From: an uncultured bacterium | Lineage (GTDB): Bacteria; CSSED10-310; CAZUFC01 | Assembly: GCA_964619725.1 (NCBI GenBank) | Contig: CAZUFC010000070.1 | Span: forward strand, 1 to 42,080 | Direction of reading: 5' to 3' | DNA length: 42,080 nucleotides | Shown: positions 14,286 through 41,581 of the stretch, in pieces | Numbering within the stretch: the first letter of the stretch is position 1 | Layout: every line of letters begins with the position of its first letter | Program-made: the position numbers and the translations under genes | The notes under the pieces: model-generated | What the model saw: only the letters and a program-made list of their open reading frames with translations | Database searches by the model: none | Told to the model about the DNA's origin: nothing

Positions 14286-17017
14286 AAGAAAAATTATCGC
14301 GTATGATCCGCTGGTTCATATTACCGGCAATGTTGATGTCGGCGTTGTTCTGCCAGTATTGCCGAATTAACAGGGAATTCGAGTTTAAAGAAGAGGAGCA
14401 TGAGAAGGGAGTAAGCGGCGCCATGCAGGCGCTTGATTTCTGGGCGGCGCAACGGGCTTATCCTTTTAATGCAGTGCCGGACAGGGGGTTCGGAGAAGCT
14501 GTCGAACAAGTGGGGAAAATGAAACGGCAGTCCGACTTAAAAGACGATATAATTGAGCCATGGGAGCTGATCGGACCTTACAACATAGGAGGAAGAACTC
14601 TTTGTCTCACTCTGCATCCGGAGAATCCGGACATTATATACGCCGGCAGCGCCAGCGGGGGACTATGGAAATCGACGACAGGCGGGGTAGGAGCTGAAGC
14701 CTGGGAATATGTCGAAACGGGCTTTCCTGTATTAGGTGTGAGCACGATCGTCATTGATCCCGGTGATCCTGACGTCATGTATATCGGCACGGGAGAAGTT
14801 TATCGATACCAGGATTCAATAGGAGGAGAGGTGATTCGCACCACCAGAGGCAGTTACGGCATAGGCATTCTGAAAACCACGGATGCCGGAGCGACGTGGT
14901 TCAAGAGTCTGGACTGGAGTTACGCTCAGACCCGCGGCATATGGATGCTGGCTTTACATCCAGAGGATTCGACCGTTCTTTATGCCGCTACGACCGAAGG
15001 CGTATTGAAATCGACAGATGCCGGCGATTCCTGGGAGACTATGCTTGACGTACGCATGGCCATGGATGTTCGCATTCATCCGGTTTCACCGAATATTATT
15101 TTTGCAGCCTGCGGCAATTTCAGTTCTGAAGGCGTGGGTATCTACCGCAGCATGAATAACGGACTTATATGGTCCAGGTTGACGAACGGTCTGCCGGGGT
15201 CCTGGAGCGGTAAGGCTCAGTTGAACATAGCCGAGACCGATACGGACAGAATATACGTAAGCATTGCCGAGACCAGCTACGGCAGGGGACTCTACCGCTC
15301 GACCGATATGGGCGACTCGTGGGTTCAGGTCAACTCAACGGATTATCCTCAATATCAAGGGTGGTATTCCCATTACGTGCTGGTCAGTCCGTTCGACGAG
15401 GACTTTCTTTTCACCGGGGGGATAGAGATATGGCGTTCGCAAGATGGGGGTCAGAACCTCTCGGAACGCTCCGACTGGACAGAGATTTACCTGGGAAGTC
15501 CGCCGCCGGAAGGCCCGATCGGAGGTCCTCATTACGCTCATGCCGACCACCATTATGCTGTGTGGCATCCTTACGATCCTGACACTGTGTTCTTTGCTTC
15601 CGACGGCGGGGTGTTCAAGACGACTGACGGCGGCGATACTTTTCAAAGCTTGATCGGAGGTTACGCCACCACTCAGTTTTACAACGGGTTCGCTTCATCG
15701 GCCCATGATCCGAACCTGGCGATAGGAGGAATGCAGGACAACCTGACCGCCATTTACCAGGGCGAAGCCGCCTGGAGAAGGGTTATAGGCGGCGACGGCG
15801 CCTGGGCTGCGATAAATCCTCTGGATAACGACACACTATATGGTTCTGCTCAATACTTATACATGGTTCGTTCCAGAAACGGCGGCAGCAACTGGACGGA
15901 GATCGAACCGCCATCGCAGTCCGGAGACAATACCGCTTTCGTGGCTCCTTATGTCCTTTGTCCTTCGAATCCCCAAATCCTTTATGCCGGCCGGTCTCGC
16001 GTTTACAAAAGTACGGATGAGGGCTCTAATTGGTTTGCGACCAATAACGGAGCAAGATTGGATGGGGCCAATCCCGTCCTGTGCCTGGACGTTGCTTTCA
16101 CAAACGAAAAAGTCGTTTATGCCGGGACCGCGCCCATTAACAATCCCGCAGGCTTTTATCGAACGCTGGACGGCGGAATGAGCTGGCAGGAAGTCACCGG
16201 CAGTCTGCCGGACAGATACCCGGCGGATTGTTATGTGGACCCTAACGAACCAGCCAGAGTCATCGTCACATTTATGGGATATGATAATTCGCATGTTTTT
16301 CTGAGTGAGGATGCCGGGGATTCCTGGCAGGATATCAGCGCAGGATTGCCTGATCTGCCCGTATCAGCGGCCGCCATTGATCCGGAATATCCCGATGTTT
16401 TCTACGCCGGCGCTGATCTGGGCGTCTTCTGTTCCACGGACGCCGGCGTTTCCTGGAGTCCTTTTCAAAACGGCATGCCGACAGCAATGGTAATCGACCT
16501 GAAAATATTCCAGCCGCAACGTAAAATAAGAGCCGCTACGCACGGCAACGGCGTATTCGAACGCAATCTCATTCAACCGCATATGCCCACGGTTTCTCCG
16601 GCTATCTCGCCAACGGCCATGCCCACACTTATCCCCCCGACGCCGACGCCGGCAATAAACTTCGGCGTAGATATCATCCTGCCGCAAAATTATTTCTCAC
16701 CCGGAGATACGTTCACGCTCTCCGCAAAATTAATCAATAACGGTCAAACGCGACCCTACGTACCCTTCTTCTGCATCCTGGACATCTACGGTCGGCTCTT
16801 CTTCTACCCCTCCTGGTCGGAATATCCGCCGGATGTCGACTGGGAATACCTCCCCGTTCCCTCAGGCATAACCGAAAAACGAATTATAGAAGCTTTCACC
16901 TGGCCTCCCATTGACCAGGCCCTGGACGGACTGTTCTTTCATGCCGCATTCCTCGACGAATCCTTCTCCGCTATAGAAGGCCGAATGGATACCGAAGGAT
17001 GGGGGTACGGCCCGTGA
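14282..17017 (+). CDS. Secreted BNR/VPS10-type beta-propeller protein with Pro/Thr linker and conserved C-terminal domain
   Basis: ATG 14282 overlaps the upstream TGA (ATGA); hydrophobic N-terminus; WELIGPYNIGGRT, many S/T.D.G..W repeats, HADHH, GGMQDN, GGDG, AATHGNG. Confidence 0.88.
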   Translation: MKEKLSRMIRWFILPAMLMSALFCQYCRINREFEFKEEEHEKGVSGAMQALDFWAAQRAYPFNAVPDRGFGEAVEQVGKMKRQSDLKDDIIEPWELIGPYNIGGRTLCLTLHPENPDIIYAGSASGGLWKSTTGGVGAEAWEYVETGFPVLGVSTIVIDPGDPDVMYIGTGEVYRYQDSIGGEVIRTTRGSYGIGILKTTDAGATWFKSLDWSYAQTRGIWMLALHPEDSTVLYAATTEGVLKSTDAGDSWETMLDVRMAMDVRIHPVSPNIIFAACGNFSSEGVGIYRSMNNGLIWSRLTNGLPGSWSGKAQLNIAETDTDRIYVSIAETSYGRGLYRSTDMGDSWVQVNSTDYPQYQGWYSHYVLVSPFDEDFLFTGGIEIWRSQDGGQNLSERSDWTEIYLGSPPPEGPIGGPHYAHADHHYAVWHPYDPDTVFFASDGGVFKTTDGGDTFQSLIGGYATTQFYNGFASSAHDPNLAIGGMQDNLTAIYQGEAAWRRVIGGDGAWAAINPLDNDTLYGSAQYLYMVRSRNGGSNWTEIEPPSQSGDNTAFVAPYVLCPSNPQILYAGRSRVYKSTDEGSNWFATNNGARLDGANPVLCLDVAFTNEKVVYAGTAPINNPAGFYRTLDGGMSWQEVTGSLPDRYPADCYVDPNEPARVIVTFMGYDNSHVFLSEDAGDSWQDISAGLPDLPVSAAAIDPEYPDVFYAGADLGVFCSTDAGVSWSPFQNGMPTAMVIDLKIFQPQRKIRAATHGNGVFERNLIQPHMPTVSPAISPTAMPTLIPPTPTPAINFGVDIILPQNYFSPGDTFTLSAKLINNGQTRPYVPFFCILDIYGRLFFYPSWSEYPPDVDWEYLPVPSGITEKRIIEAFTWPPIDQALDGLFFHAAFLDESFSAIEGRMDTEGWGYGP

Positions 17018-17219
17018 TCCGTAAAATTCGAAAAACGCTGATAAAGATTCATCTCTGATAATCTTTTCTGAATGCACGGATCGCAACGAAATTTGATTAA
17101 ATCAACGCTCTTCTGCCAGATGTCATAAAAAGTATAACTATTTCAATGGGTTCTACTTTCCTTAAATCCTGTGAGAAATCCGGGTAAAAAGAGAATCCTG
17201 AAGAGGATCATTCACGCAT

Positions 17220-17265
17220 AAAAAAACGCGATTTCCACAACCTTTGTGCCATGGAAACCGCGTTT
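17220..17265 (-). terminator. Rho-independent terminator of the minus-strand C25 gene
   Basis: Minus strand AAACGCGGTTTCCA-loop-TGGAAATCGCG followed by T7, about 30 nt after the stop. Confidence 0.7.
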
Positions 17266-17293
17266 AATGTCGACGTTGTTTTTATTTCTTCAA

Positions 17294-20200
17294 TTACGGA
17301 CCGAATCCGAAGGTCCATTGACCTATGGCGAGCATGCCTCCAAGGACTTGCTGAAAGTCCTGAGTTGTCATGGCGCTCCAGAAATGAATGCCGTTGAGTT
17401 CGGTCTGTCCTGTTTCAGGCCATTCGAATTCCGTCAGGATTTGCAATATTGATTTGCCGATGGGCAGATAGATCATTTTGAAATCGAAGTCGTTTTTCCA
17501 GTCGTCGTAGAACCAGAGTTCTCCTCCGATGTCCAGTATGACGAAGAAGGGAACGTTGCTCATGGGGACGCCTGAGTAGTTGTAAAGTTCTGCGTCAAGC
17601 CGGCAGGTATCGCCGGGAGTGTAATAATCGGAGGGCATATTGAGGACCACTTTGTAGTCGGATATGTGGTCGGGAGTGGGATCAACGGTCGGCGTCCGGG
17701 TCGGTCCGACGGTCGGAGAAGGCGCGATAGTGGGTGTGGGCAGGAGACATTCCCTGGAATAGGAGACTTTAACATCGTCGATATTCCATCCGCAATAGAC
17801 CCATCCCTGATCGGTGTCGCCCATTACCCATCTGATGTATACCGTTTCCTGATCGTCTGCGTAGTCGGAGATGTCGAACTCCTGGTAGGTCCATTCTTCA
17901 TCGGCTAATTCATCGTCGGGGTTTTCCCATATGGTGTGCCAGAATGAACCGTCATTGGATACGCGAATATACGCGTGATCGTAGGTGCTTCTCTCAACGC
18001 CCAGCCATCTCTGGAACGACAGTTTAACGCCTTCTCTTCCCGAACAGTCAATGGCGTCGGTGGTCAGGTAATGTTCCGGCATGTAATTCGTATAATCGCC
18101 GTTTAAATTGTAGCCGTAAACATTAAAGCCGGTGTGCCCTGATACGGGATCGGGACCTCCATGCTGTCCTCCGTATCCGTTAGGCTGTCCCCAGGCCCAG
18201 GCGCCGCCGGAAACGACCCAGTTCGGCTGAACAGACATATCCTCTTCCATCAGTATGACTTCTTCATAGGTTCCTTCTGCGTAATTGGAACCCTGGTTAT
18301 CGTCCGTCGCTACGTTGCCGGCAAGATCGGCGGATTCGACGTAGAAAACGTAAGTGGTGCATTCGTTCAATTCCGTTATGGTGATTTCATGAAAAGTCGA
18401 CAGCATATCGCTGGTTTTCGTCTGTGAAGGAGTCCCTTCGCCGTAAACCACCGTGCTGGTTGCCTCTTCATCCGTAGACCACTGTATGGTTATCTCGGAT
18501 TCCGTGATATTCGTTACTTCCACTCCCGTTATCTCAGGAGCGACGGCATCCACGGATGCCATGGCGGATTTTTCCACATCTATGCCTCCGTGGCCGTCAT
18601 CCGCATCGATATACGTGGCTGTCACGGCATCATTGTGCTGGACTTCCAGAATTCCGTTGCCCGCAGTCGCCGTTCCTTCTTCCAGGGTTATTTCACCTTC
18701 GAAGAAACAGGAAGAGAATCCCGTTTCATTCAATACCAACGTTTCCTGGTCTCCTGTAAATGTGGTTAAAGTTATTTCCACGGTATCCGGCATCCCGGAA
18801 TTCTCATCCAGGTCAACGTCTCTGACCGACACCACAGCCTGCGATCCCGGAGAATAGATGTTTTTATCCAGTCCTATAGTCCCGTCGCTCGACAGAATCG
18901 TTCCCATTCCCAGATCAGGGTTACCCCAGATAGTCCATTCCGCCATCTCAAATTTCGGATAATACCATCCGTCTATCTGATAAACCTGCATCAAGGCGTT
19001 TTGATGAGCGGCTCCCTGTGTATACTCTCCTGAAGTCACGGCAGTGCTGAAGTAGTAGTCCATAGACTGACTGGAACCGTCAAGCGGATCGTCCCAGGCT
19101 GATGTTCCATACGCGACTTTTGTCGCTCCCACGAAACCTACGGCCCCCTGTTGCAGCATCTTCGCACCTATATTGGTGTAATCGGTATCCGAATTGCTGC
19201 AGGCGTCGGCAAAAATAATGGCGGGATATTCATCGTTCAGGCTGCTGCAGTCCGAGGCTTCGATGAACGGCGCCGAGCCCATGCCCAAAATGTAACAACC
19301 GTAATAAGAACCATGCCCGGCCCAGTTTACGAAAGCGTAAGAACCGGAAGACCATACGGAAACCACGTTGCTCTGAAGGAGCTCATAATCGCATGGATAG
19401 GATGAATAATAACTGCCGTTCTGCTCATACATCCTCGTCATCGTCCAGTCGGCCATCCATGGCTGGTCCACCTTCGCTTCCATCAATACGGCATTGTCCG
19501 TGTCATCCCAAAAATACGCTCCCAGCAACAATATATTCTTCTTGAAAGCCGGATCGTCATTTAATTCGTAAGCCTCAGATTTTTCGCAGATGTGCTCTAC
19601 CGTATCCGCATCGCTCCACGGTATCCTTCCCACGTTAATCTCCGAATAAAAATCAACGTTATCCGAATCGTCGCCGTAGCGCCCGTTGCTATTGCTGTCC
19701 CAGGACTGATCGTCAGGAGCAGATAACTCCGCAAAATAAAAATCAGTCCGGGGTCTTCCATAACCGGCATCCTGCCAGACCGTCCGCATCGGCACATCCG
19801 AATGATGACCGACAAAACACACGTCCTCTATCCCCCACTCCGATGTGGGATACTTCTCCAGCAGGAAATTACGCATCTTCTGGGCGGTATCCGCTCCCGC
19901 ATAATTGCTCTCAATCCAATTTACCGTCACAACTCGCACGTTCCGGCCCTTGTCGCTCTCCCAGTCGACTAAACTCCCAATAGAAGGCCGCAACGCTTCG
20001 GTCGTTATAATCACATAATCATACAATCCTTTGCCGGATGAGCATTTCGGATACCACTCTTGCGCCTGATCATAATTGAGCATGATCAGGCGTGCCTGAC
20101 TCTCCATTCGTGGCTGACAGTCGTATAAAACCGGTTCCCGCATATCGTCATTTTTGCCGGGTAATACATATTCAACTTCTATCGATATCTCCGGGAAATA

Positions 20201-20707
20201 ATAGAGTTTTCCTGAAACAGGATTATATTGGAACGGCGTTATACGAACGTCCGCAAGATTGTATTTTCGATAACCGGCCTGACCGATAAACTCCGCTAAC
20301 CCCGAAGGATAAAGATCATTACTCCCGTATATTCTCTCTTTCGTCATCCTGTAACGTTCCAGTTCCTCAGCATAAATCTCCGGGTTCTCTTCTCCGATGA
20401 CCCGATAAACCGGTACCGCTTTAACCTCATATTGGCCCGGAAACTCGACGGTCTGTTTCGATTTAACTTTTACTCCCTGGATTTCCGCTCCCGGAGGAAC
20501 CGCAACCGCGAAAATTCGCGAAGGAAGCCTGGGAGCGCCGGGTACGTTCACATAACCGAAGCCCTCCACACTCACTTCGCTCTTCCCGTCGACATAATTG
20601 ATATTGTACTCGCCGACGGGGATATTAACCTCAATGTTCTCCGCCAGGCACTGCGCCGGCGTCCATATTAAAAGGGACAAAATAAACACCCAGTTGATTT
20701 TGTTCAT
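17294..20707 (-). CDS. C25 family peptidase with propeptide, Ig-like, FN3-like and adhesin-like domains, Pro/Thr linker and conserved C-terminal domain
   Basis: ATG 20707 after AAGGGAG; signal peptide MNKINWVFILSLLIWTPAQCLA; YDYVIIT, INVGRIP, catalytic NWAGHGS and FADACSN, TIWGNPD. Confidence 0.9.
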   Translation of the reverse strand: MNKINWVFILSLLIWTPAQCLAENIEVNIPVGEYNINYVDGKSEVSVEGFGYVNVPGAPRLPSRIFAVAVPPGAEIQGVKVKSKQTVEFPGQYEVKAVPVYRVIGEENPEIYAEELERYRMTKERIYGSNDLYPSGLAEFIGQAGYRKYNLADVRITPFQYNPVSGKLYYFPEISIEVEYVLPGKNDDMREPVLYDCQPRMESQARLIMLNYDQAQEWYPKCSSGKGLYDYVIITTEALRPSIGSLVDWESDKGRNVRVVTVNWIESNYAGADTAQKMRNFLLEKYPTSEWGIEDVCFVGHHSDVPMRTVWQDAGYGRPRTDFYFAELSAPDDQSWDSNSNGRYGDDSDNVDFYSEINVGRIPWSDADTVEHICEKSEAYELNDDPAFKKNILLLGAYFWDDTDNAVLMEAKVDQPWMADWTMTRMYEQNGSYYSSYPCDYELLQSNVVSVWSSGSYAFVNWAGHGSYYGCYILGMGSAPFIEASDCSSLNDEYPAIIFADACSNSDTDYTNIGAKMLQQGAVGFVGATKVAYGTSAWDDPLDGSSQSMDYYFSTAVTSGEYTQGAAHQNALMQVYQIDGWYYPKFEMAEWTIWGNPDLGMGTILSSDGTIGLDKNIYSPGSQAVVSVRDVDLDENSGMPDTVEITLTTFTGDQETLVLNETGFSSCFFEGEITLEEGTATAGNGILEVQHNDAVTATYIDADDGHGGIDVEKSAMASVDAVAPEITGVEVTNITESEITIQWSTDEEATSTVVYGEGTPSQTKTSDMLSTFHEITITELNECTTYVFYVESADLAGNVATDDNQGSNYAEGTYEEVILMEEDMSVQPNWVVSGGAWAWGQPNGYGGQHGGPDPVSGHTGFNVYGYNLNGDYTNYMPEHYLTTDAIDCSGREGVKLSFQRWLGVERSTYDHAYIRVSNDGSFWHTIWENPDDELADEEWTYQEFDISDYADDQETVYIRWVMGDTDQGWVYCGWNIDDVKVSYSRECLLPTPTIAPSPTVGPTRTPTVDPTPDHISDYKVVLNMPSDYYTPGDTCRLDAELYNYSGVPMSNVPFFVILDIGGELWFYDDWKNDFDFKMIYLPIGKSILQILTEFEWPETGQTELNGIHFWSAMTTQDFQQVLGGMLAIGQWTFGFGP

Positions 20708-20862
20708 GGAATACTCCCTTCCCATGGTTCCGTTTTTCGTCATTACCTTTACCCTTGAATCGGTTTTCATTTCGATTACCGACCTCAGTTAATTAATATA
20801 TTAATAAATTAGACTTATCGCAAGAAATATCATGAAAAAGTCAATTTCGTCCTTCCAGGCGT

Positions 20863-20891
20863 TTGACAATCAGTCCTGCAACTTACATAAT
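20863..20891 (+). promoter_or_regulatory. Putative sigma70 promoter of the DUF456 gene
   Basis: TTGACA(20863-20868)-N17-CATAAT(20886-20891). Confidence 0.55.
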
Positions 20892-25185: not shown

Positions 25186-27522
<2,337 letters not shown>

Positions 27523-27866
27523 GATCCGCCTCAATTCAAAAATGAAAAAATTTGACAAAAACCGACATCTCTGCAACTGATTCGAACCTTCATTAAACAT
27601 ATTAAGAAAATTCAAGGCAAAGTCAATCGACTGGAGATAGACGTCCGATGAAGCATGGTGATGCTCATAAAGGACTCAGAGCGCTACGCCAGGACCAGCA
27701 AAAAGAAGACGCTCCCGTTGCTGCCAGGGCTCAGGAATCATCAGGAAACGCTGTCAGCAAAGATTATCCGGCATCCGGCATCTGTTCAATTCAATGAAAA
27801 TTTGGAATCCCTGAAGCAGAATGTTACATTCCTCATGTCGATAAATGATTTTTTCCCGTGCACAGG

Positions 27867-30237: not shown

Positions 30238-30273
30238 TTGACAAAAAACGTAAATTATGTTATGAAACGTTTT
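30238..30273 (+). promoter_or_regulatory. Promoter and overlapping palindromic operator upstream of tetR
   Basis: TTGACA(30238-43)-N17-TATGAA(30261-66) with extended TG; inverted repeat AAAACGT(30245-51)-N15-ACGTTTT(30267-73). Confidence 0.6.
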
Positions 30274-30286
30274 GGAGGATCGAACG

Positions 30287-30901
30287 ATGAAGAAGCGGAT
30301 TATGGAAAACAGGAAATTCAAAGCATTGATGGATACGGCTGAAAGGCTTTTCATGAAGCACGGATTTCGCCGGGTTACTATAAAGGAACTTTGTGAAAAA
30401 GCGGACGTGAGCAAAATGACTTTTTACAAGCATTTCGATAACAAGGCTGACCTGGTGAAGTTTATGATTGATGTTTTGATTTCGCGTAATATGGAGAGAT
30501 ACAGGAGCATTATGAATTCCGATATGCCTTATGCTGCAAAGATACGGAAGATTATAGATTTAAAAATGGAGCAGACCCGGAATGTGAGTCGGGAATTTTT
30601 TGAAGACATCCATATTTATTCGGAGCCGGATATACGTGATCACATGCGGGAGAGAACGGATTCGACGGTGCAAGAGATGTTGGCGGATTTTACGGAGGCG
30701 CAGAGACAGGGATATATCAGGGCGGACATCAAGCCCGAGTTTATTTTATATTTTTTGAATCACATGTTTGAGATGGTGAAGGACGCTCGTTTGAGCGGCA
30801 TATATGAGAGTCCTTCGGAGTTGATAATGGAGCTGGTGAATTTCTTTTTCTACGGGATAATGGGTGAGTCAGGCATCGAGGAAGGTCGGGATGAGAAATA
30901 G
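30287..30901 (+). CDS. TetR/AcrR family transcriptional regulator
   Basis: GGAGG then ATG 30287; AERLFMKHGFRRVTIKELCEKADVSKMTFYKHFDNKADL HTH. Confidence 0.93.
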   Translation: MKKRIMENRKFKALMDTAERLFMKHGFRRVTIKELCEKADVSKMTFYKHFDNKADLVKFMIDVLISRNMERYRSIMNSDMPYAAKIRKIIDLKMEQTRNVSREFFEDIHIYSEPDIRDHMRERTDSTVQEMLADFTEAQRQGYIRADIKPEFILYFLNHMFEMVKDARLSGIYESPSELIMELVNFFFYGIMGESGIEEGRDEK

Positions 30902-32063
30902 CGGTAAGCGGGCATCGACCGTCGGGGTATTAATTATCGCTTTAGCGCTTGTAGCGGCGAAGGCGGATGCCGTTTCGATCGGATCAAGAGGGCATTTATC
31001 CGGATGGATAGGCTTTAATGATGCCGGGGAAACAGGCATTCATCTGGGAGTAAGGTATGTGCCTGAGCTGTTCATAGAGACTTCATTCGGCGAGAATTAC
31101 ACTATTGATGCGGATATATCGGTGAATACGTATGGACGAAGCGTATTAAGCGAGGGAGATGTCGATGCGTCGGGTGAGTTAAAACTATATCGACTGTGGA
31201 TAAGGATGACGTCGGTGCAGATGGAAGCCCGTTTGGGGCTTCAGAAGATCAATTTCGGTCCGGCGACTTTGTTCAGGCCTTTGATGTGGTTCGACCGGAT
31301 TGATCCTCGCGATCCGCTGGAAATGACGGAAGGCGTCTATGGTTTTTTAATGCGTTACTACTTTTTAAACAACGTGAATGTTTGGGCCTGGGGACTTTAT
31401 GACAATGAGGAGACGAAGGGTTGGGAGATTGCTCCGACTGCCGAAGGAAAAGTTGAATGGGGCGGCAGAGTGCAGTTGCCGGTATTTCAGGGTGAGATGG
31501 GAATTTCGTATCATCGGAGGAAAGCGGACACCGGCGCTTTGCCTTTATTAACGGAGAAGGAAATATCGGAGCAAAGGTTTGGTATTGACGGTCGCTGGGA
31601 CATTGAGACCGGCATGTGGTTCGAAGCGTCCTGGACTCGCTGGGACGTGGAGTGGGATATGTTGCGGTACAGACGTATGGTGACCCTGGGCATCGATTAT
31701 ACCTTTAATATCGGCAACGGACTTTACGGATTAGGCGAATATCTGACCGCTGCATCTGCCGAAGACCCTTTTCAATCCAGGTTAAAAAGCGAATTAACCG
31801 GAATTATGCTGAATTATCCCCTGGGCTTGCTCGACAGCGTGACGGGTATGTTCTACTACGACTGGGACAACCGGGACCGTTATAATTTTTTAAGATGGGA
31901 GCGCATATACGATCATTGGGGATTGCATTTCATGGCGTTCTGGAATCCGGAAGATTCTGTGATGCAGATGGCGCCTTATCAACCGGAAAACGGATTCGAT
32001 GCGTCGAATGGCGGATTGATGAGAGGTAAAGGAATGCAGATAATGCTCGTTTTGAACCATTAG
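30891..32063 (+). CDS. Conserved exported protein, probably an outer-membrane beta-barrel, associated with the ABC operon
   Basis: Signal peptide ending AKA; LYRLW.R, RLGLQKINFG..LFRPLMWFD.IDPRDP; alternating beta-strand pattern. Confidence 0.65.
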   Translation: MRNSGKRASTVGVLIIALALVAAKADAVSIGSRGHLSGWIGFNDAGETGIHLGVRYVPELFIETSFGENYTIDADISVNTYGRSVLSEGDVDASGELKLYRLWIRMTSVQMEARLGLQKINFGPATLFRPLMWFDRIDPRDPLEMTEGVYGFLMRYYFLNNVNVWAWGLYDNEETKGWEIAPTAEGKVEWGGRVQLPVFQGEMGISYHRRKADTGALPLLTEKEISEQRFGIDGRWDIETGMWFEASWTRWDVEWDMLRYRRMVTLGIDYTFNIGNGLYGLGEYLTAASAEDPFQSRLKSELTGIMLNYPLGLLDSVTGMFYYDWDNRDRYNFLRWERIYDHWGLHFMAFWNPEDSVMQMAPYQPENGFDASNGGLMRGKGMQIMLVLNH

Positions 32064-32112
32064 AGTGTTTATGGAGCCGGGATTTGAATATTGCCGGATA
32101 GGAGGAATACGA

Positions 32113-32835
32113 ATGGAAAACTCAGACATAATATCCCTGACGGGCATAACGAAGAAGTTCCCTGTCGGCGGAGGATATTTCACGGCGCTGGACCAGATAT
32201 ATCTCAGGTTCAGGAAAGGTGAATTCGCCGGATTTGTAGGTCCGAGCGGTTCAGGCAAGACGACGTTGCTGAACATCATCGGTTCCCTGGACAATCCGAC
32301 GGAAGGCGAAGCCATAGTATTGGACCGTTCCGTAGGCGTTTTATCTCATAAAAAAGCGGCCCTGCTTCGCCGAAAGCACCTGGGTTTCATCTTTCAAACA
32401 TATAATCTTCTTCCGGTTTACACGGTGTATGAAAACGTGGAATTTCCGTTGCTGCTTTTGAAAATGCAGGAGTCGGAACGAAGAAAAGCGATAATGGATG
32501 CCCTGGAATGGGTCGGGATAGAGGACAAGGCGGGATCGAAGCCGGCTCAGTTGTCAGGAGGAGAGTCTCAAAGAGTCGCCATCGCACGCGCCATGGTTAA
32601 GCGCCCTGAAATTGTTTTGGCGGATGAGCCGACTGCGAACCTGGATGCGAAGAATTCGCACAACATTCTGGAGACGATGGAGAAATTGAATGCGGAATTG
32701 AGAACAACGTTTCTTTTCGCCACTCATGATGAAAAGGTGATCCGTTATCTTCATCGGAAGATATCGCTTGAGGACGGCCGGGTGGTGAAAGATGAGCAGA
32801 TGAAAGGAGCGCGGGTCGAAGGAGAGCAGGCATGA
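32113..32835 (+). CDS. ABC transporter ATP-binding protein (LolD/MacB-like)
   Basis: GPSGSGKTT, LSGGESQRVAIARA, LADEPTANLD, ATHD; GGAGG before ATG 32113. Confidence 0.95.
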   Translation: MENSDIISLTGITKKFPVGGGYFTALDQIYLRFRKGEFAGFVGPSGSGKTTLLNIIGSLDNPTEGEAIVLDRSVGVLSHKKAALLRRKHLGFIFQTYNLLPVYTVYENVEFPLLLLKMQESERRKAIMDALEWVGIEDKAGSKPAQLSGGESQRVAIARAMVKRPEIVLADEPTANLDAKNSHNILETMEKLNAELRTTFLFATHDEKVIRYLHRKISLEDGRVVKDEQMKGARVEGEQA

Positions 32836-34004
32836 TATCCTTGAAATTAGCTTATCGCAATATTGTGGGAGCGGGTTTGAGGACCTGGCTGAGCGTAATC
32901 GTTCTTTCTTTTTCCTTTGTTTTGATCATCTGGAACCAGGGGTTGCTGAACGGTTGGGACAGGCAGGCCAGAAGGGACACCATCGCCTGGGAAATTGGCG
33001 GCGGACAATACTGGCATGAAGCTTATGATCCTTTTGATCCGTTTGCCCTGTCCGACAGTCATGCCTTGGTTCCGGAAAAGTTGAAAAGAGACGTTCAGGA
33101 CGGCAGGTTTGCCCCTGTTTTGATCGCTCAGACTGCGGCATATCCGGAAGGACGAATGCATAACCTGCTTTTGAAGGGAATAGAACCCGGTCAAAACATA
33201 TTAGAATTGCCCACAAAACATCTGGATGCTGATATCGAGGAAATTCCCGCGATCATAGGAGAACGGACGGCGGACAGTCTTAACCTGAACGTCGGCGAAC
33301 TTATGACTGTCAGGTGGCGGGATGCGAACGGCATGTTCGATGCCAGGGACGTTAAAATAATGAGCGTCATGGAAACGGACGTCATCTCGGTGGATAAAGG
33401 ACAGCTTTGGATACCGCTGAAACGAATGCGGGAAATGATGCAGGCTCCCGGTGAAGCGACCCTCATCATCGTCGAGCAGGGGATGGAGAATCCGCCCGAA
33501 GCTGATAAATGGGTGTTCAGAGACCATGAATACCTGATGAGGGACATCACCCAGATGATAAAAACCAAAACAGTAGGACAGTCGATTTTTTATCTTCTTC
33601 TGCTGTCGCTGGCCCTCCTGGCTATTTTCGATACGCAGATACTGGCGATATTCAGGCGGCGTAAGGAAATCGGCACCCTCATCGCTTTGGGTATGACCAG
33701 GGGCGAAGTCATACGACTCTTCACGTTAGAAGGCGCCATGCATGGCGTCCTGGCCGCAATCGTCGGCGCTGTCTACGGCATTCCCCTGCTGGCATACTTC
33801 GCTATATACGGATTAGGCGTTCCTCAATCCACGGAAGACTTCGGTTACGCCATCGCTGAAAGAATTTACCCGGCTTACAGCCTGGGACTGGTGACAGGAA
33901 CAACCCTGATAATCTTAGTTACGGTTACTATCGTCAGTTTTATTCCCACCCGCAAAATCGCAAGACTTAAACCCACAGACGCCATCAGGGGGACATTCCA
34001 ATGA
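32832..34004 (+). CDS. ABC transporter permease (FtsX/LolC-E-like)
   Basis: LAYRNI...RT, large periplasmic loop, RRKEIGTLIALG, LKPTDAIR; ATGA overlap. Confidence 0.9.
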   Translation: MISLKLAYRNIVGAGLRTWLSVIVLSFSFVLIIWNQGLLNGWDRQARRDTIAWEIGGGQYWHEAYDPFDPFALSDSHALVPEKLKRDVQDGRFAPVLIAQTAAYPEGRMHNLLLKGIEPGQNILELPTKHLDADIEEIPAIIGERTADSLNLNVGELMTVRWRDANGMFDARDVKIMSVMETDVISVDKGQLWIPLKRMREMMQAPGEATLIIVEQGMENPPEADKWVFRDHEYLMRDITQMIKTKTVGQSIFYLLLLSLALLAIFDTQILAIFRRRKEIGTLIALGMTRGEVIRLFTLEGAMHGVLAAIVGAVYGIPLLAYFAIYGLGVPQSTEDFGYAIAERIYPAYSLGLVTGTTLIILVTVTIVSFIPTRKIARLKPTDAIRGTFQ

Positions 34005-35275
34005 TTAAATTCCTGCTTAAAGGCCTGATCAGGGACCCTTCCCGAAGCCTGTTTCCCCTGCTGACCGTCATTTTGGGCGTTATGCTGACGGTGTTTCTCC
34101 ATAGCTGGATCGGCGGCATACTGGGCGATGTGGAAGATTTGACCGCACGTTTCGATACAGGGCATGTCAAGGTGGTCACCCGCGCATATGCGGAGAATGC
34201 GGACCAGTTGCCCAACGACCTGGCCCTCGCCGGCGTCAATACTTTAATGAAACAATTGAAATCAATGTTTGAAAACGTCAACTGGACGCAGAGAATACGA
34301 TTCGGCGGATTAATCGATGTTCCCGACGAAAAAGGCGAAACCAGATCACAGGGACCCGCTATGGGACTGGCCGTTGATCTGCTGTCGCCGGATTCTAAAG
34401 AAATCGAAAGATTGAATATTCAAAAATCAATGGTCAAGGGAGAACTTCCCCAAAAAAATGGAGAAATTATCATCAGCGACGAATTCGCCCATAAACTGGA
34501 GGTTGAACCGGGCGATGCCGTCACTTTGATCAGTTCAGCAATGTACGGCAGTATGGCCATGCATAATTTCAACATCGCCGGCACGATCAGCTTCGGCATG
34601 GAGGTCCTGGACAGAGGGTCTTTCATTGCGGATATCAGGGATGTGAGATTAGCGCTGGATATGGACAATGCCTGCAGCGAAATTCTGGGATTCTTCGAAT
34701 CAAAGCGCTTTAATCAGGACAAGGCTGAAACGGTCAAGCGCGCTTTCAATGAAAAGTATGCGGATGAGGATGATGAATTCTCGCCCGTTATGTTGACCCT
34801 GGTCGATGCAGCGGGTTTCGGCGATAACCTGGAATTGGCACGCAGTATGTCTGTACTGCTGGTCGGACTCTTCGTTTTCGTCATGTCGCTGGTGTTGTGG
34901 AATACCGGATTGATCGGAGGCTTGCGCAGATACGGAGAAATTGGCGTACGACTAGCTGTGGGAGAAGACAAAACCAACCTTTACGCATCCATGATCGCTG
35001 AATCCATCATGATCGGCATCGCAGGTTCCCTTGTCGGAACATCTATAGGACTTACCGGCGCTTATATTATACAACATTACGGCATTGATTTCAGTTTCAT
35101 GATGCAAAAATCATCCATGATGCTTCCTAATGTCGTCAGAACAAAAGTCACCACCGTCACTTACTTCATCGGTTTCATCCCCGGACTGCTCTCAAACGTC
35201 CTGGGTTCATCCCTCGCCGGTATTGGCATATATAAAAGACAAACCGCTCACCTCTTCAAGGAGCTTGAAACATGA
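34001..35275 (+). CDS. ABC transporter permease (FtsX/LolC-E-like)
   Basis: N-terminal TM, periplasmic loop, RRYGEIGVRLAVGE; ATGA overlap. Confidence 0.9.
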   Translation: MIKFLLKGLIRDPSRSLFPLLTVILGVMLTVFLHSWIGGILGDVEDLTARFDTGHVKVVTRAYAENADQLPNDLALAGVNTLMKQLKSMFENVNWTQRIRFGGLIDVPDEKGETRSQGPAMGLAVDLLSPDSKEIERLNIQKSMVKGELPQKNGEIIISDEFAHKLEVEPGDAVTLISSAMYGSMAMHNFNIAGTISFGMEVLDRGSFIADIRDVRLALDMDNACSEILGFFESKRFNQDKAETVKRAFNEKYADEDDEFSPVMLTLVDAAGFGDNLELARSMSVLLVGLFVFVMSLVLWNTGLIGGLRRYGEIGVRLAVGEDKTNLYASMIAESIMIGIAGSLVGTSIGLTGAYIIQHYGIDFSFMMQKSSMMLPNVVRTKVTTVTYFIGFIPGLLSNVLGSSLAGIGIYKRQTAHLFKELET

Positions 35276-36018
35276 AAATTTCCCTCTTCGTGAGTTTCTC
35301 CCTGCTTTTGGCTGTTTTAGCTCAGTCGTACGCACAGGAACTGACCGCAGACCTTATACTGGAAAAAGTTGACGAGAACCTCACCTCGCATAACCGCTTC
35401 TTCCGGTCAAAAATGATCATTCACGGACGCAGGGGAAGCCGAACCGTGGAATCGAAAACCTGGGCCGAAGGAGAAAACAAAGCCTTCACGGAATATGTCG
35501 CGCCCGCAAGAGAAAAAGGAACAAAAATGCTCAAACTGGACGACAACCTCTGGATGTATTCCCCGTCCACAGATCGCATTATCCAAATATCGGGACACAT
35601 GCTGAGACAATCCGTCATGGGGTCGGACCTCTCCTATGAAGACATGATGGAAGATGCGAAATTACATGAAAACTATGATGCGGAAATTACCGGCAATGAA
35701 AAGATCAATGAAACAGATTGTTATGTCTTAAAATTAACTGCTCGACAAGAGGACCTGGCGTACCACTCCAGAAAAATATGGGTCGACAATGAAAAATTCG
35801 TCCCCTTAAGAGAAGAACTGTACGCCAAAAGCGGAAAACTGCTGAAAAAAACGGACCTGCAAGACTTCAAACAAATAGAAGGAAGATGGTACCCCCGAAA
35901 AATCATCTTCAAGGATATGCTGAAAAGAGGCGACGGCACGGAATTCATTATTGATGAAATCGAGTTTAATATTGAGATACCGAAAAGTGTTTTTTCCAAG
36001 GCCGCGTTGCGGAGATGA
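35272..36018 (+). CDS. Outer-membrane lipoprotein-sorting (LolA-like) protein
   Basis: Signal peptide; APAREKGTKMLK, LWMYSP, MGSDLSYEDM, ELYAKSGKLLK. Confidence 0.85.
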   Translation: MKISLFVSFSLLLAVLAQSYAQELTADLILEKVDENLTSHNRFFRSKMIIHGRRGSRTVESKTWAEGENKAFTEYVAPAREKGTKMLKLDDNLWMYSPSTDRIIQISGHMLRQSVMGSDLSYEDMMEDAKLHENYDAEITGNEKINETDCYVLKLTARQEDLAYHSRKIWVDNEKFVPLREELYAKSGKLLKKTDLQDFKQIEGRWYPRKIIFKDMLKRGDGTEFIIDEIEFNIEIPKSVFSKAALRR

Positions 36019-36436: not shown

Positions 36437-36787
36437 ATGAAAAAGACAGACATTGATTTAAGAGGATATTTTGAATTTTTGGATAATGATGACATTCGTG
36501 TTAAAGGAACACGCGTAGGAATTGAGATCATTCTTGAAGATTATCTGAATGCTTTCAGTCCTGAAGAAATCGCAATACGCTATCCAACATTGAATCTGGA
36601 GCAGGTATACGCTACGATAACTTATTATTTTCATAACAAAGCCCGAATCGATGCTTATTTGAAACGTTGGCGAAAATATTCCGAGGAATCAAGATTGGCG
36701 CAAATACGAAATCCGACACCTGCAGTCAGGCGTCTTCAAGATTTAAAACGACGCAGATCGAAAATAATGAACGAGTCTTCTGCATGA
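36437..36787 (+). CDS. DUF433 domain protein (putative antitoxin)
   Basis: IRVKGTRVGIE.IL...SPEEIA.RYPTL.LEQVYA.I.YY. Confidence 0.88.
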   Translation: MKKTDIDLRGYFEFLDNDDIRVKGTRVGIEIILEDYLNAFSPEEIAIRYPTLNLEQVYATITYYFHNKARIDAYLKRWRKYSEESRLAQIRNPTPAVRRLQDLKRRRSKIMNESSA

Positions 36788-37146
36788 ACGGACGGTCCTA
36801 TTTAATCGATGAGAATACAACACCTGCTCTTGCTGATCAATTGCGCCGCCGGCGATCGATTATCAATGTCATGAAGATCGGGGATGAATCTGCTCCGCCA
36901 AAAGGAACACCTGATAAAGATATATTATTATGGATCGAAAGGCATGGTTTTAGTTTGGTGACCCGTAACAGGAAATCCATGCCGTATCATCTGGATCAGC
37001 ATTTGAAATCGGAGCATCATGTCCAGGGGATTTTTGTTTTGCGACCAAGGGCGTCATTGGGAGAAGTCATAGACGATTTGATTCATATTTGGGAATCCTC
37101 AGAGCCGGATGAATTCCAGGATCAGATTGTCCGCCTTCCATTATAA
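36784..37146 (+). CDS. DUF5615 PIN-like protein (putative toxin)
   Basis: ATGA overlap with DUF433; YLIDEN, GTPDKDILLW, LVTRNRKSM, GIFVL. Confidence 0.82.
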   Translation: MNGRSYLIDENTTPALADQLRRRRSIINVMKIGDESAPPKGTPDKDILLWIERHGFSLVTRNRKSMPYHLDQHLKSEHHVQGIFVLRPRASLGEVIDDLIHIWESSEPDEFQDQIVRLPL

Positions 37147-37177
37147 GCATAACCGCCAGATGAACCTGACGACGAAT

Positions 37178-37330: not shown

Positions 37331-37364
37331 AACAGCCCTGAGTCAGTCAGAGATTTATTAGGTA

Positions 37365-37417
37365 GTGACTGTCCATAAACTCGATTGTCGATTCAAAATT
37401 TAATGTTGGACAGTCAC
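37365..37417. mobile_element. Solo MITE module B (53 bp) with a 6-bp direct repeat TAGGTA on both sides
   Basis: GTGACTGTCCA...TGGACAGTCAC perfect 11-bp TIR; TAGGTA at 37359-64 and 37418-23; inverted relative to the copies at 25065 and 41970. Confidence 0.85.
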
Positions 37418-37633
37418 TAGGTAGAGATTACTTCAAGTAAGAGGGATTTCAAACCGATAAACGGTTTAAAAGCGATGCTCCGCTTTGATAAGTCCGCAGC
37501 ATCGTTAGATGAGCAAATGCGTACTGGGGCTCCAGTAAGAGGATATACATGTGGGTAAAGAAAAGGCAGTTGACGTAAATAAGAGAAGGTAATAAATTCG
37601 CCTGAGGGAACATTCCAGAGCAGGAGATCACTT

Positions 37634-38803
37634 GTGAACGGTCAGGCGGCGAAGAATCGGGCCCCCAGGGCGCTAGTTTGTTTCAGTCTGCTTTTTCTGC
37701 AGGCTATAGCGGCGACTTTGCTGGGACCTCTGGTCAGCGTTATCGAGGAGCATTTTCATACGGGGGAAGCGGGTATCGGCGCACTTTCCGGCGGAGTTGC
37801 AGCGGGGTTCATTCTTGCCGTGACTTTGAGCGGATATGTGGGCAGAAAGACTGGAATAAAAATTATTTTGCTTCTGGGCTCTTTTCCGGCTCTTTCCGGA
37901 TTGCTTCTGTTCAGCCAGGTGCATCATTTCAGCCTGGGGATGACTGGTATGATTCTCGTCGGCATATCCGGCGGATTCGCTCAGATAGGGGTCAATGCCG
38001 TTATCCTCAGTTATTTCAGGGAAAACCGCACATTTTATATGAACCTTCTGCATGTATTTTTCGGATGCGGAGCTGTTGCGGGACCCCGGATAACGGCTTA
38101 TTTTCTGAAATACGGAATAGGCTGGCAATGGCTTTATATTCTTCTGTCGGGTTTGTTTGGATTGAATTTCATCTCCAGTTTGTTCGTCGGTTTTCCTGCG
38201 GTATCGGAAAAGGAATTTCAGAAAGGACCGGCCGATTTAAATAGGCTGTCGCCGGCGCTGGTTATATGGATAGGCGCTGCAGCCATATCATTCTATGTGG
38301 GAGCGGAATCGACGCTCAACATATGGTCTCCGGTTTATATGGAAAGGGTTGTTGGAATAACCAGAGTGCATGCTGCGGCGAACTTAAGCAATTTCTGGTT
38401 GTGCCTGATGATCGGTCGAATTATATGCACGCTGCTGGCGAAGAAAATGTCGTCGCGAATCATCCTGATGATACTGTGTTCCGGGGCATTTCTGTCCGTT
38501 TTGATTTTCGTGACGATACCCGCTCAATCTATGGCAGGAATATCTCTGGCCGCTGCCGGACTCTTTTTTTCCGGCTTTTTCGCCACTCTGCTGGCGCTGG
38601 TCGGCGACTATTATCCCGACTCGATCGACCGGATAACATCGATCATGGTTTTCACTTCCGGCATAGGCCTGTTGTTTTATCCCTGGCTGGCGGGAATAGC
38701 TGCGGAATTTATGAGTCTTCGCACGGCAATTTATCTGCCTTTAATTCTGACGTTTCTTTTAAGTCTTTTTTCTCTTTTCCTGACAGTAAAAACAAGAAAC
38801 TGA
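37634..38803 (+). CDS. MFS transporter (fucose permease/TsgA-like)
   Basis: About 12 TM helices; MNLLHVFFGCGAVAGP, FYVGAE...W, FW..LMIGR. Confidence 0.88.
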   Translation: MNGQAAKNRAPRALVCFSLLFLQAIAATLLGPLVSVIEEHFHTGEAGIGALSGGVAAGFILAVTLSGYVGRKTGIKIILLLGSFPALSGLLLFSQVHHFSLGMTGMILVGISGGFAQIGVNAVILSYFRENRTFYMNLLHVFFGCGAVAGPRITAYFLKYGIGWQWLYILLSGLFGLNFISSLFVGFPAVSEKEFQKGPADLNRLSPALVIWIGAAAISFYVGAESTLNIWSPVYMERVVGITRVHAAANLSNFWLCLMIGRIICTLLAKKMSSRIILMILCSGAFLSVLIFVTIPAQSMAGISLAAAGLFFSGFFATLLALVGDYYPDSIDRITSIMVFTSGIGLLFYPWLAGIAAEFMSLRTAIYLPLILTFLLSLFSLFLTVKTRN

Positions 38804-38815
38804 TCGGTTTCAGCA

Positions 38816-41581
38816 TTATTCGTGATACCCGAAACGCCAGGCGTAGATGTTGCTCAGCACGTCGTTCATGTCCTTATCCGTGACTGCGGCCAGAAAATAG
38901 AGGCCGGAAGCTGAGCCGGCGTTTTCGGGCCAGGCGAATTCATTAATGACGGGGAATGTGATGATGCCCTGGGGAAGTCCGAAAGTATAATAATCGAAAG
39001 ATTCCGGAAAATGCCCCCAGCCTGGTGCGGTCCAGTATTCTCCGTAAATTTCCAGGACAATGAAAACCAGGACCCAGGTCAAGGGGTCGCCGGGGTTCTC
39101 GACGGAGGCCGTGAGCGAGCAGGGATCGCCCGGTGAGAAGCTATGTGCGGGCATAATGAGAGAGAAGACGTTTATTTCACCGGCGTATGGGGTGGAGTAT
39201 GGAGAAGGGGAAGGGGTAACAGTGGCCGGAATAGTCGGAATCGATGATTCTGTGGGGTGAGGTGAAGGCGAATAAGTCGGAATAGCCGAAGGCGTCAGAG
39301 TGGGCGCATGAATTGTGAAATCCGCGGCGCTCATGTCCGATGTTTTATTCCACGAGGGGTCGTAGGCTACGGATTTTATGCGGCAGGCATTTGAGTTTAT
39401 CATCGGGACGGTCCAACCGTATGAGCCGGAAGTCCTGACGCCGCCCTTAACGACCAAAGGCCATGAAGCGCCCGAATCCGTCGATAAGAAAAGGTCTGCG
39501 TATAGAATGCAATCATTGTCGGAGGCGTTCCAGGAGATGGTGAAGTTATCGCCGCCGTTAAGGATTTCTCCGCCGTTGGGGGCTGTCAGGTCTATGGATG
39601 GAGACGTTTCATCGATCGGCGCCCATTTATAGAGACCATATCTGGTCCCTGCATAGACCTGTTCGGTTTCGTTTTCAATTCTGCAGGCAATGCGCTGTAT
39701 TCCCTGATTATAGAATCCATCGTTCCTTTCGGTCCAGGATTCACCCTGGTCTGTACTGAACCAGAATCCGCTGCCTCCGGCATAAATGGTTCCGTCTACC
39801 GGCGATATTTTTATGTCGCCTATAATCCCGGGTATTTCCGTTCCGAGGTTTTTGGTCCAGGTTTCGCCGTAATCGGTCGTGCGGCATATTTTGTAACCGT
39901 TAGAATCGGTAAAATAGGTTCCGGGCGTTTGAGGATCGCTGCATATGTTCATCGATGCGACGAATTCCATCGGCGTCCACGTGGTTCCGAAATCCGTGCT
40001 TCTTCTGAAGACGTGGTTGGAATACAAGAGGGAATGAACGAAGATAACGGCGGGATCAAACGGGTCCGCTTCCAGTGAAGCGACCTGCATGGAACCGAGG
40101 ACGCGCCAGGATACGCCGGCATCGGATGACAACCATAGACCGGTGTTGGTTGATGACCCGGCCGCGCCGTAATAGACGTAATCCGGGGCTTCTCTGCAGA
40201 AGCTTATGCCGTTGCAGTTTCCGCTGCCGGTTATGTTGGTCGGCTGCTAGGAATTCCCCCCGTCTGTGCTGCGATGAAGGGAAGACGTTCCTGCCAGTAA
40301 TATCTGCGGATCGTCCGGTTTGTAGGCTGACCAGGCGCTGAAACTGGTTGAAGGACATTCCGTATCGGTCCATTCAAGTCCTTTATTATCGGTCCTGAAA
40401 AGCGCTTTTACCTCTCGACCGGCGACCAGCAAGGTGTCTTCGTCCTGGGGATGAAGTTCCAATCCCGTTACCCAGTTGCCGGAAAAATATCGGGCGCTTA
40501 ATTTCCAGGTTTCTCCCCCGTCGATGCTTGCCAAAGGTCCGGTGTATATATTGCAGACATATATTGTTTGAGGGTCATCCGGATGCACCGTTACCGACAG
40601 TCCCATCCCGATGAATTCATTCTCTTTCGACTCCCAGGTTTCTCCCCCGTCGGAGCTTCTGTATATCAATGTCGGGAACCAGTCGTAGGTTCCGCCCACG
40701 GCCCATAACACATCAGAATTCGACGGATCAGCACGGATGCAGTTTATCGTTTCATCCAAAAGCAGCTCCCACGTGTAACCGCCATCCGTGCTCTTCGATA
40801 TGTTGCCTTCAAAATTCCACCGCCAGGCAGTGTATATGGCGCTATATTCATCGTCCAGAACTTCTATGCTCCTATGAGATGCTTCAGTGCGCTCCATCGG
40901 TCCTTTTGATGAATCTGTATGACCTCTGATCTCCCAGGTTAATCCTCCGTCCGTGCTCACCCCTGTTCCCGACTGTTCGATGGCCGCATAAATAATATCA
41001 GGATTCGCCGGATGGTCCGTAAATTCATAATAATCATGAGTCACATCCAATATCGACCAGCTTTCGCCGCCGTCCTCAGATATATACAAACGATCAAAAC
41101 CGCCTGCCAGAACCCTATCCGGATTCGAACCGTGAATCCATACGTCCAGCAAATCATCCGTCAGGCTCAATTCCTCCCATACCTGACCGCCGTCCACGCT
41201 CTTATAGACGCTGCACCAGCCTCCGCCCGCAGCATAATAAATATCAGGGTCAAAAGGATGTTGTCGAATATGCCGCAGATTCACGGTGTCGAGACTCATT
41301 CCCTCACGGGAGGGCAGCCAGGTCGCTCCGGCGTTGTACGAAGCGAACGCTCCAGCCCAGGTCCCCATCACGATATGATTGTGATCAGAACGGTCAATGC
41401 AGAATCCCGAACTGCCGCCTCCCCAGGGCCCGTTTAAATTTCTCCAGGCATGATCATCACGATGGAAAAGCTCCGCAGAAGATTCGACGGTTTCCGCAGC
41501 GCAGTCCGGGACGCTGCACAATAGATGCATGACCGACGCAATCATTGTAATCGTTTTCATATATGATGATTTACTTGTCAT
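38816..41581 (-). pseudogene. Secreted BNR-repeat beta-propeller protein with Ig-like domain, Pro/Thr linker and conserved C-terminal domain; interrupted by one in-frame TAG (40247-40249)
   Basis: The two track ORFs are in the same frame with an open 38-codon bridge; the stop falls in STDGGNS*, where BNR repeats have W; start ATG 41581 after GGGGAG. Confidence 0.85.

Follow-up and report, generated by a model that had tools for sequence, protein, structure and literature searches.

The window considered here, a stretch of 42,080 nucleotides forming contig C70 (CAZUFC010000070.1) in the assembly of an uncultured bacterium of the phylum CSSED10-310, contains three genes for exported-type proteins whose C-terminus is a shared, homologous domain some 120 residues long, for which the short name CTD (C-terminal domain) is used throughout. 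The CTD is probably a lineage-specific C-terminal module for the sorting or anchoring of exported proteins, which would operate independently of the T9SS (type IX secretion system). An export or surface-attachment tag of this kind had been proposed in a preliminary description of the window, and the proposal is supported by the position of the domain, its cargo, its spread and the alternative tails that occupy its place in sister genomes, the function itself being deduced from sequence. A bolder proposition, in which the CTD would be the address label of a new, clade-confined outer-membrane secretion and surface-attachment pathway that arose in a lineage without the T9SS, has its own translocon and processing enzymes and takes cargo which bears membrane-anchor-type C-terminal signals in sister lineages, is regarded as conceivable but rather doubtful.

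C-terminal sorting domains define whole secretion systems, and the T9SS was itself recognised largely through a shared domain of this kind. Such domains as a class are already known; the present family is new to the two catalogues compared, Pfam (2025 copy) and NCBIfam (release 20), and would be categorically new only if dedicated machinery exists. If the proposed role is correct, the CTD would allow the surface and secreted proteins of a poorly known uncultured phylum to be listed at once, and would supply a new family model for genome annotation and a defined way to seek an unrecognised outer-membrane route or anchor.

Family size, position and cargo of the domain

The three window copies (Table 1) align over about 120 residues with 28 invariant columns, the other two being 40% and 32% identical to copy 1. 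A profile of the three retrieved 150 scored matches (from 321 candidates), with E-values of 1e-43 to 5e-15, elsewhere in the own genome of the window (G000, a 9.17 Mb assembly of 344 contigs, 90.9% complete with 6.5% contamination), and the likeness between the window copies is thus far beyond chance. The preliminary description had placed all three domains to within a few bases of the limits confirmed by the profile, and its naming of the passenger proteins agrees with family matches to Sortilin-Vps10/BNR, Peptidase_C25 and BNR/Sortilin with Big_7; the Pro/Thr linker that it reported ahead of each domain is seen in all three translations. Its account of three signal-peptide proteins holds for the two intact ones. 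The probable true start of the first gene is the Met codon at about 14282, ahead of the signal peptide MKEKLSRMIRWFILPAMLMSALFC, and the probable start of the second, which also encodes a propeptide and fn3-like domains, is the Met codon at about 20707, ahead of the signal peptide MNKINWVFILSLLIWTPAQCLA. The third gene is split by an in-frame TAG, with the signal peptide and BNR on a separate upstream open reading frame (ORF; 40247-41677, minus strand) and BNR, Big_7 and the CTD on the downstream one (38816-40132, minus strand). When the TAG is read as X, residues 43-953 of the product align, at 47.6% identity, with a paralogue from contig C24 that is intact and 916 residues long; since this alignment runs across the TAG, the two ORFs are taken to be one gene, in which the TAG could mean that the gene is a pseudogene, varies within the population or was misassembled.

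Enumeration of the family by two rounds of search with hidden Markov models (HMMs) in all stop-to-stop frames of the own genome gave 224 matches in 223 reading frames. The CTD ends within 5 residues of the stop in 211 of the 224 (94%) and within 15 residues in 215, and lies elsewhere in the protein in 9; no tandem pairs were found in the 223 frames. A signal-peptide-like N-terminus, recognised by a crude rule (a basic residue and then a hydrophobic stretch after a possible start codon), is present in 174 of the 194 testable CTD proteins as against 307 of 600 random long control ORFs under the same rule, and the N-termini inspected as examples resemble ordinary Sec signals. The pairing of a terminal domain with an N-terminal export signal, originally noted for three proteins, is in this way extended to the family at large.

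The CTD has a median length of 121 residues, a median pI of 4.05 and a net charge of -13, and is encoded at a density of approximately one gene per 41-44 kb in the host genomes. Pro, Thr and Ser make up 48% of the 30 residues preceding it, compared with about 21% across the same proteins, and reach at least 50% ahead of the domain in 123 of the 207 proteins compared. Clustering divides the 197 passenger parts into 93 clusters (71 singletons); the passengers are varied, including peptidases, beta-helices, propellers and adhesin-like domains. They are acidic as well (pI 4.3, compared with 6.0 for random long ORFs), and the combination of acidic passengers with the CTD marks these proteins as a class apart from the bulk proteome. 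The median pairwise identity between copies is 30% (5th to 95th percentile 22-41%); in view of this value, the 93 passenger clusters, the occurrence in 11 genomes and the 2410 clusters found world-wide, the copies are not recent paralogues. The terminal [WF]G[YF] motif put forward in the preliminary description stands in part: an aromatic-Gly-aromatic ending is common, at least 90% of the 31 aligned copies having Gly at position 119 of the alignment, and a stricter version of the pattern matches just 54 of 215 tails.

Spread, fold and alternative tails

An alignment of 31 copies (A2) served as the profile for the cross-genome searches, the protein search and the structure prediction. Against 1.84 billion representative proteins, it gave 2410 matches at E <= 1e-3, of which 2031 reach E <= 1e-10; among the best 150 of the 2410, the C-terminus is no more than 5 residues away in 145 and no more than 15 in 147, the other 3 being internal. 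A Pfam scan of 71 relatives from elsewhere identified extracellular-type families in 41, the remaining 30 having no family at E <= 1e-5. The families include repeats and propellers (Beta_helix, DUF1565, Chlamydia PMP repeats, FG-GAP/ASPIC, BNR/Sortilin and Kelch), peptidases (C25, C11, C1, S8, M6 and M12A) and others such as VWA, lamin-tail, cohesin, GH123, GHL15 and CarboxypepD_reg.

The phylum was sampled with 14 species genomes, the own genome and 13 others (G001-G013), all of them drafts of uncultured organisms in assemblies 60-96% complete. Whole-genome profile searches identified the CTD in 10 of the 13 others, where copy numbers range from 59 to at least 110 even for genomes as small as 2.6-3.3 Mb, and did not find it in G001, G002 and G004, each of which represents its own family, or in 27 outgroup genomes, many of them with a T9SS. 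The CTD-bearing genomes span four families, and the domain is probably confined to one clade of this small uncultured phylum.

The domain has no counterpart in the catalogues compared, as the preliminary description had anticipated. Scanned singly at E <= 10, the 31 copies gave scattered singleton noise and no family in Pfam, and likewise singleton noise only in NCBIfam; the three window copies have no covering Pfam family at E <= 0.1 and no NCBIfam match at E <= 10. A profile search of all PDB sequences returned chance-level matches only, the ESM Atlas unnamed clusters only, and the cluster look-up, apart from one 'DedD', no label but 'hypothetical protein'. The paper announcing five genomes of the phylum is silent on the domain and mentions, with regard to secretion, only flagella and pili. 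In the portions available of the literature naming CSSED10-310, no mention of the CTD turned up, and the papers listed on the T9SS CTD and PorU are canonical T9SS work only. CSSED10-310 is not the phylum renamed Zhuqueibacterota, the paper on which nowhere names CSSED10.

An AlphaFold2 model of copy 2, computed with the 31-sequence alignment, is an eight-stranded beta-sandwich (pLDDT 96.7, pTM 0.87). Its top Foldseek match is the CARDB domain of PF1109 (E 4e-5, TM 0.60-0.66, 12-13% identity), and an exhaustive structural aligner ranks the Ig-like domains of GH66 dextranases (Z 9.8), CARDB (9.0), a GH2 Ig domain (8.9) and RbmA (8.6) above a long tail of Ig-like domains. The predicted fold is thus a generic Ig-like/E-set sandwich that points to no specific known family and, being common, carries no functional message.

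The place of the CTD is taken by other signals in related lineages. The passenger portions of both intact window proteins served as queries against the CTD-less genomes G001, G002 and G004, and the ends of 16 homologous frames were read, 11 of which had their stop inside the retrieved locus, that is, a complete C-terminus. Seven of these 11 (eight by eye) close with a hydrophobic segment and then a tail rich in Lys and Arg, and three end otherwise. Five or six of the tail-bearing homologues are BNR proteins of G004 and two are C25 peptidases of G001, 53-55% identical to that of the window; a Pro/Thr linker precedes the helix-plus-basic tail in two homologues. The loci bearing such tails are L139, L141, L143, L145 and L147 in G004 and L149 and L150 in G001. 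The CTD profile matches none of these sister-genome homologues at E <= 10, and a rule combining hydropathy and charge found the helix-plus-basic tail in 0 of the 223 CTD proteins. The same position on homologous passengers therefore holds either the CTD or a membrane-anchor-type tail, as would be expected if the two were interchangeable signals for sorting or anchoring, and the swap constitutes a natural experiment that can guide the search for the machinery. No NCBIfam model scored above its cut-off on the sister-genome tails, the best being LPXTG_anchor (14.3 bits against 15.9, on one tail), and these tails may represent further unclassified CTERM-type signals. A protein of 1530 residues in the own genome (G000:C102:9219-13808, plus strand) also ends in a hydrophobic helix and a basic tail (...GIIGIIAILGFLISLSGRKR...), and helix-type C-terminal signals thus coexist there with the CTD.

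The observations on fold and tails bear on two other explanations. The CTD could be a plain binding module (for adhesion, carbohydrate binding or protein docking, as in dockerins) that has no sorting role and is exported by an ordinary type II secretion system (T2SS), of which the genome has several. Its fold is closest to CARDB, Ig domains associated with glycoside hydrolases (GH), RbmA and carbohydrate-binding modules, its conserved aromatic residues include W55, W81, F79 and F94, two of which lie between predicted strands, and Pro/Thr linkers such as those preceding it typically join binding modules to catalytic domains. Binding modules usually vary in position and number, whereas the CTD is single-copy and stands at the stop codon in 94% of the 224 matches; moreover, its 93 unrelated passenger clusters include many proteases unlikely to share one substrate, and the sister genomes place membrane-anchor-type tails, not another binding domain, at this position. 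This explanation is accordingly considered unlikely. Less probable still is a C-terminal pro-domain or intramolecular chaperone that would aid folding or passage and then be removed without any anchoring. A beta-sandwich at the C-terminus of secreted hydrolases, several of them peptidases, in a genome rich in C25-type peptidases possibly able to trim it (23 matches to the PorU sortase model NF033707) fits such a role, but the 31 copies gave no Pfam match at E <= 10 to the pre-peptidase C-terminal (PPC) domain, presumably PF04151, or to any other family, most passengers are not peptidases, a long Pro/Thr stalk would be needless, and the anchor-type tails replacing the CTD in the sister genomes point to anchoring.

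Candidate secretion machinery

The architecture of the CTD proteins is that of T9SS cargo, and the defining parts of the T9SS were therefore searched. No candidates for SprA (TIGR04189) were found in the 14 phylum genomes, and SprA_N/PF14349 was not detected in the own genome; as a positive control, the same SprA model matched 36 of 87 outgroup genomes, 20 of them above the curated cut-off. PorV (NF033710) gave just two marginal partial matches in the phylum (E 4.4e-4 and 6.6e-4), compared with best E-values of 1.5e-61 to 1.3e-15 in 11 outgroup genomes. The canonical type A CTD of the T9SS (TIGR04183), which yields up to 107 matches per outgroup genome, has no match in 12 of the 14 phylum genomes, the own genome among them, and an hhalign comparison of the new CTD with 13 canonical CTDs from outgroup loci returned a probability of 0.7%. 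G013 (69% complete) has ten matches to the type A model and G012 (78% complete) has one; both lack SprA, and the matches may be contamination from T9SS-bearing organisms. The search for GldM (TIGR03517) is uninformative because none of 41 genomes, the SprA-positive ones included, gave a match. SprA and the new CTD do not occur together in the genomes searched, the SprA-bearing outgroup genomes being without the CTD and the CTD-bearing genomes without SprA. The lack of resemblance to T9SS domains, first noted from the missing motifs, is thus sustained by the profile comparisons, and the core components SprA and PorV were not found in the phylum sample under strong outgroup controls.

A peptidase resembling PorU is encoded near the left edge of the window (Table 1). 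The ORF at 1692-4958 matches a C25 peptidase over its full length (E 2.3e-73) and aligns with positions 63-735 of the PorU model with a score of 230 bits, the cut-off being 420. A second copy in the own genome (G000:C69:24099-27266) is 49% identical to it, and strong orthologues (E < 1e-180) occur in G003, G007, G008 and G011, while G012 has, on a short contig, just the C-terminal part. No copy was found in the CTD-bearing genomes G005, G006, G009 and G010 (90-94% complete), even with a query from G011 of the same family, and the gene is thus not a universal requirement; its role as a candidate processing enzyme for the CTD, by cleavage or transfer, is speculative. Both own-genome copies are divergent from a neighbouring gene for a secreted SdrD_B protein with a very long Pro/Thr repeat, the N-terminal parts of the two SdrD_B proteins being 68-70% identical. 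No partner gene common to the flanks of six PorU-like loci was found, except for this duplicated SdrD_B/Pro-Thr protein of the own genome. That the CTD is a T9SS domain which has diverged strongly and is served by a T9SS that is itself cryptic and diverged, as its cargo-like architecture, its tens to hundreds of copies per genome with C25 peptidases among the cargo, the PorU-like peptidase of the window (E 4.2e-68) and the T9SS of many sampled neighbour phyla might suggest, is highly improbable given the 14 genomes without an SprA candidate or a real PorV match under good positive controls, the 12 without TIGR04183, the low profile-profile probability, the differing length and motifs, and the low score of a PorU-like gene that four well-assembled CTD-bearing genomes do not show.

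The PorU-like protein itself ends in a different module of about 110 residues, here called domain B. The own genome has 53 copies of it in 33 proteins, often in tandem and 24 of them at the extreme C-terminus, and domain B never shares a protein with the CTD. Its presence and absence equal those of the CTD in 41 of 41 genomes (11 of 11 CTD-bearing genomes, 0 of 3 CTD-less phylum genomes and 0 of 27 outgroups), and it may mark components of a putative CTD machinery. Domain B has no Pfam family and only a weak match to a choice-of-anchor-X motif, and at profile level it resembles neither the CTD nor the T9SS CTDs; its model is an Ig-like sandwich (pLDDT 77.6). A small protein made of a signal peptide and domain B is conserved in most CTD-bearing genomes, the own copy (C41:28483-29125) lying among housekeeping genes. 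Complex prediction for the CTD with domain B scored 0.01 and 0.00, the mark being 0.32, which is not informative either way.

As for routes across the outer membrane, the own genome encodes seven secretins and clusters of the GspDEFG, GspKLM, PilMNOQ and Tad types, and secretins occur in all 14 phylum genomes (2-7 each). An exosortase-family protein of about 200 residues is likewise found in all 14, full-length exosortase matches being restricted to the CTD-less G001 and G002. Two T2SS-like secretin clusters (C26:19600-26900 and C24:4100-15700) both have Big_1/invasin-D3 proteins after them on the same strand, and then come a CTD protein on C26 and a protein of 1766 residues ending in domain B on C24.

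Under the preferred reading of the CTD as a sorting or anchoring module, the N-terminal signal peptide would take the protein through Sec into the periplasm, and an extended Pro/Thr stalk would link the passenger to the acidic sandwich of about 120 residues, the last strand of which is predicted to form the free C-terminus. This terminal sandwich would act as a handle for delivery to, and holding on, the outer face of the cell. The outer membrane would probably be crossed by way of a T2SS-type secretin system, of which there are several, or else through an unrecognised translocon, and where a PorU-like C25 peptidase is present the CTD may be clipped or exchanged after transit. The CTD would in this manner play the role of the hydrophobic-helix-plus-basic-tail signals on homologous passengers in the CTD-less sister lineages and, without using the T9SS, a role parallel to that of the T9SS CTDs in Bacteroidota.

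Several points weigh against this reading. Surface delivery, retention, the outer-membrane route and cleavage are each read from sequence data, and no partner or cognate machinery was found with families queried one at a time. The secretins and the small exosortase do not track the CTD, as they are present in all the phylum genomes sampled. Strong PorU-like orthologues occur in just four other CTD-bearing genomes and were not found in four good ones, and weaker homologues are present in the CTD-less G001 and G002. Since the CTD-bearing genomes probably form one clade, their pattern of presence and absence counts as approximately one gain or loss. Copies in non-terminal positions exist (9 of 224 in the own genome, a few of which truly have other domains after them, and 3 of the 150 best matches elsewhere), the signal-peptide rule accepts 51% of the control ORFs, and the generic Ig-like/E-set fold also serves as a plain binding or spacer module. 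Finally, the own genome is a draft in 344 contigs with 6.5% estimated contamination.

Window genes and comparison with known systems

The features of the window that bear on the CTD are collected in Table 1. The gene at the left edge, of which the encoded C-terminus lies beyond the contig, has paralogues on C69 and C253 that are interrupted by runs of N, and its sole complete paralogue (on C1, 59% identity) is without a CTD.

Table 1. Positions of the CTD-bearing genes, their linkers and terminal domains, and of the PorU-like region in the window
Feature	Position	Strand	Basis or remark
BNR/Sortilin-Vps10 propeller gene, CTD-bearing	14210..17017	+	935-aa ORF; Sortilin-Vps10 E 9.6e-24
Pro/Thr-rich linker before CTD copy 1	16577..16657 (approximate limits)	+	translation
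CTD copy 1, about 119 aa, up to the stop (...EGWGYGP)	16658..17014	+	E 8.7e-40, 31-sequence profile
C25 (gingipain-family) peptidase gene, CTD-bearing	17294..20770	-	1158-aa ORF; Peptidase_C25 E 1e-37
Pro/Thr-rich linker before CTD copy 2	17660..17743 (approximate limits)	-	translation
CTD copy 2, up to the stop (...QWTFGFGP)	17297..17659	-	copy used for the structure model
BNR/Sortilin + Big_7 gene, broken by in-frame TAG at 40247-40249	38816..41677	-	family matches, paralogue alignment
Pro/Thr/Ser-rich linker before CTD copy 3	39164..39295 (approximate limits)	-	translation
CTD copy 3, up to the stop (...AWRFGYHE)	38819..39163	-	E 2.1e-41, 31-sequence profile
5' part of secreted SdrD_B-domain protein with long Pro/Thr repeat, leaving the contig edge	2..1483	-	
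PorU-like C25 peptidase, 1088 aa, signal peptide, ending in domain B	1692..4958	+	NF033707 E 4.2e-68
Domain B, about 110 aa, C-terminal module of the PorU-like protein	4581-4955	+	

Other genes of the window are listed here as separate observations. The valyl-tRNA synthetase (ValRS) of the window, used as a query against genome contigs, retrieved only relatives from other phyla, with identities no higher than 65%. The ORF at 5186-6844 (plus strand) encodes a protein of 552 residues with a partial catalytic domain of the RuBisCO large chain (E 4.6e-27, positions 1-171 of 299 in the profile) and a C-terminal cupin, and is an unusual RuBisCO-like fusion. A protein of 809 residues with collagen triple-helix repeats (25186-27615, minus strand) weakly matches collagen-like adhesins and the N-terminal domain of the Bdellovibrio mosaic adhesive trimer. 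An operon-like run at 30272-36018 (plus strand) comprises a TetR regulator, a protein of 399 residues without a family, an ABC ATPase, two permeases of the FtsX/MacB type and a LolA-like protein (PF17131, E 1.7e-62). The overlapping DUF433 and PIN-like (DUF5615/PIN_10) ORFs at 36437-37146 (plus strand) are probably a toxin-antitoxin pair.

Among known systems, CARDB (PDB 3idu/2kl6) is one of the best structural matches of the CTD model (VIA Z 9.0 over 98 residues); only the fold is shared, the identity being 10-13%, with no Pfam match to PF07705 and no PDB entry related in sequence. PPC domains and dockerin modules are, like the CTD, C-terminal additions of secreted enzymes attached through linkers; the CTD differs from them in having no Pfam match, passengers that extend far beyond peptidases and no repeated cohesin-like receptor identified.

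The T9SS type A CTD (TIGR04183/PF18962/Por_Secre_tail) shares with the new domain the arrangement of a signal peptide, a passenger and one beta-sandwich at the extreme C-terminus, a cargo of tens to hundreds of proteins per genome with hydrolases, adhesins and C25 peptidases among them, and, in part of the CTD lineage, a PorU-like C25 peptidase. The two are without sequence or profile similarity; the canonical domain has about 70-90 residues, whereas the new one has about 120, is strongly acidic, usually follows a Pro/Thr stalk and lacks the PNPF, G.YFY and K..K motifs. The type B CTD of the T9SS (CHU_C), taken to be part of Pfam-A as PF13585, did not appear in the Pfam-A scan of the 31 copies at E <= 10.

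The PEP-CTERM/exosortase, LPXTG/sortase and GlyGly-CTERM systems offer a further comparison. The CTD is predicted to be a folded, soluble, acidic domain of 120 residues without the hydrophobic helix and basic tail of the PEP-CTERM and LPXTG types (0 of 223), and no cognate sortase-like enzyme tracks it. It resembles them in its position, which on homologous passengers is the same and in some cases likewise follows a Pro/Thr linker, and, in common with these membrane-anchor-type signals, it marks a large, diverse and lineage-restricted set of proteins that appear to be exported.

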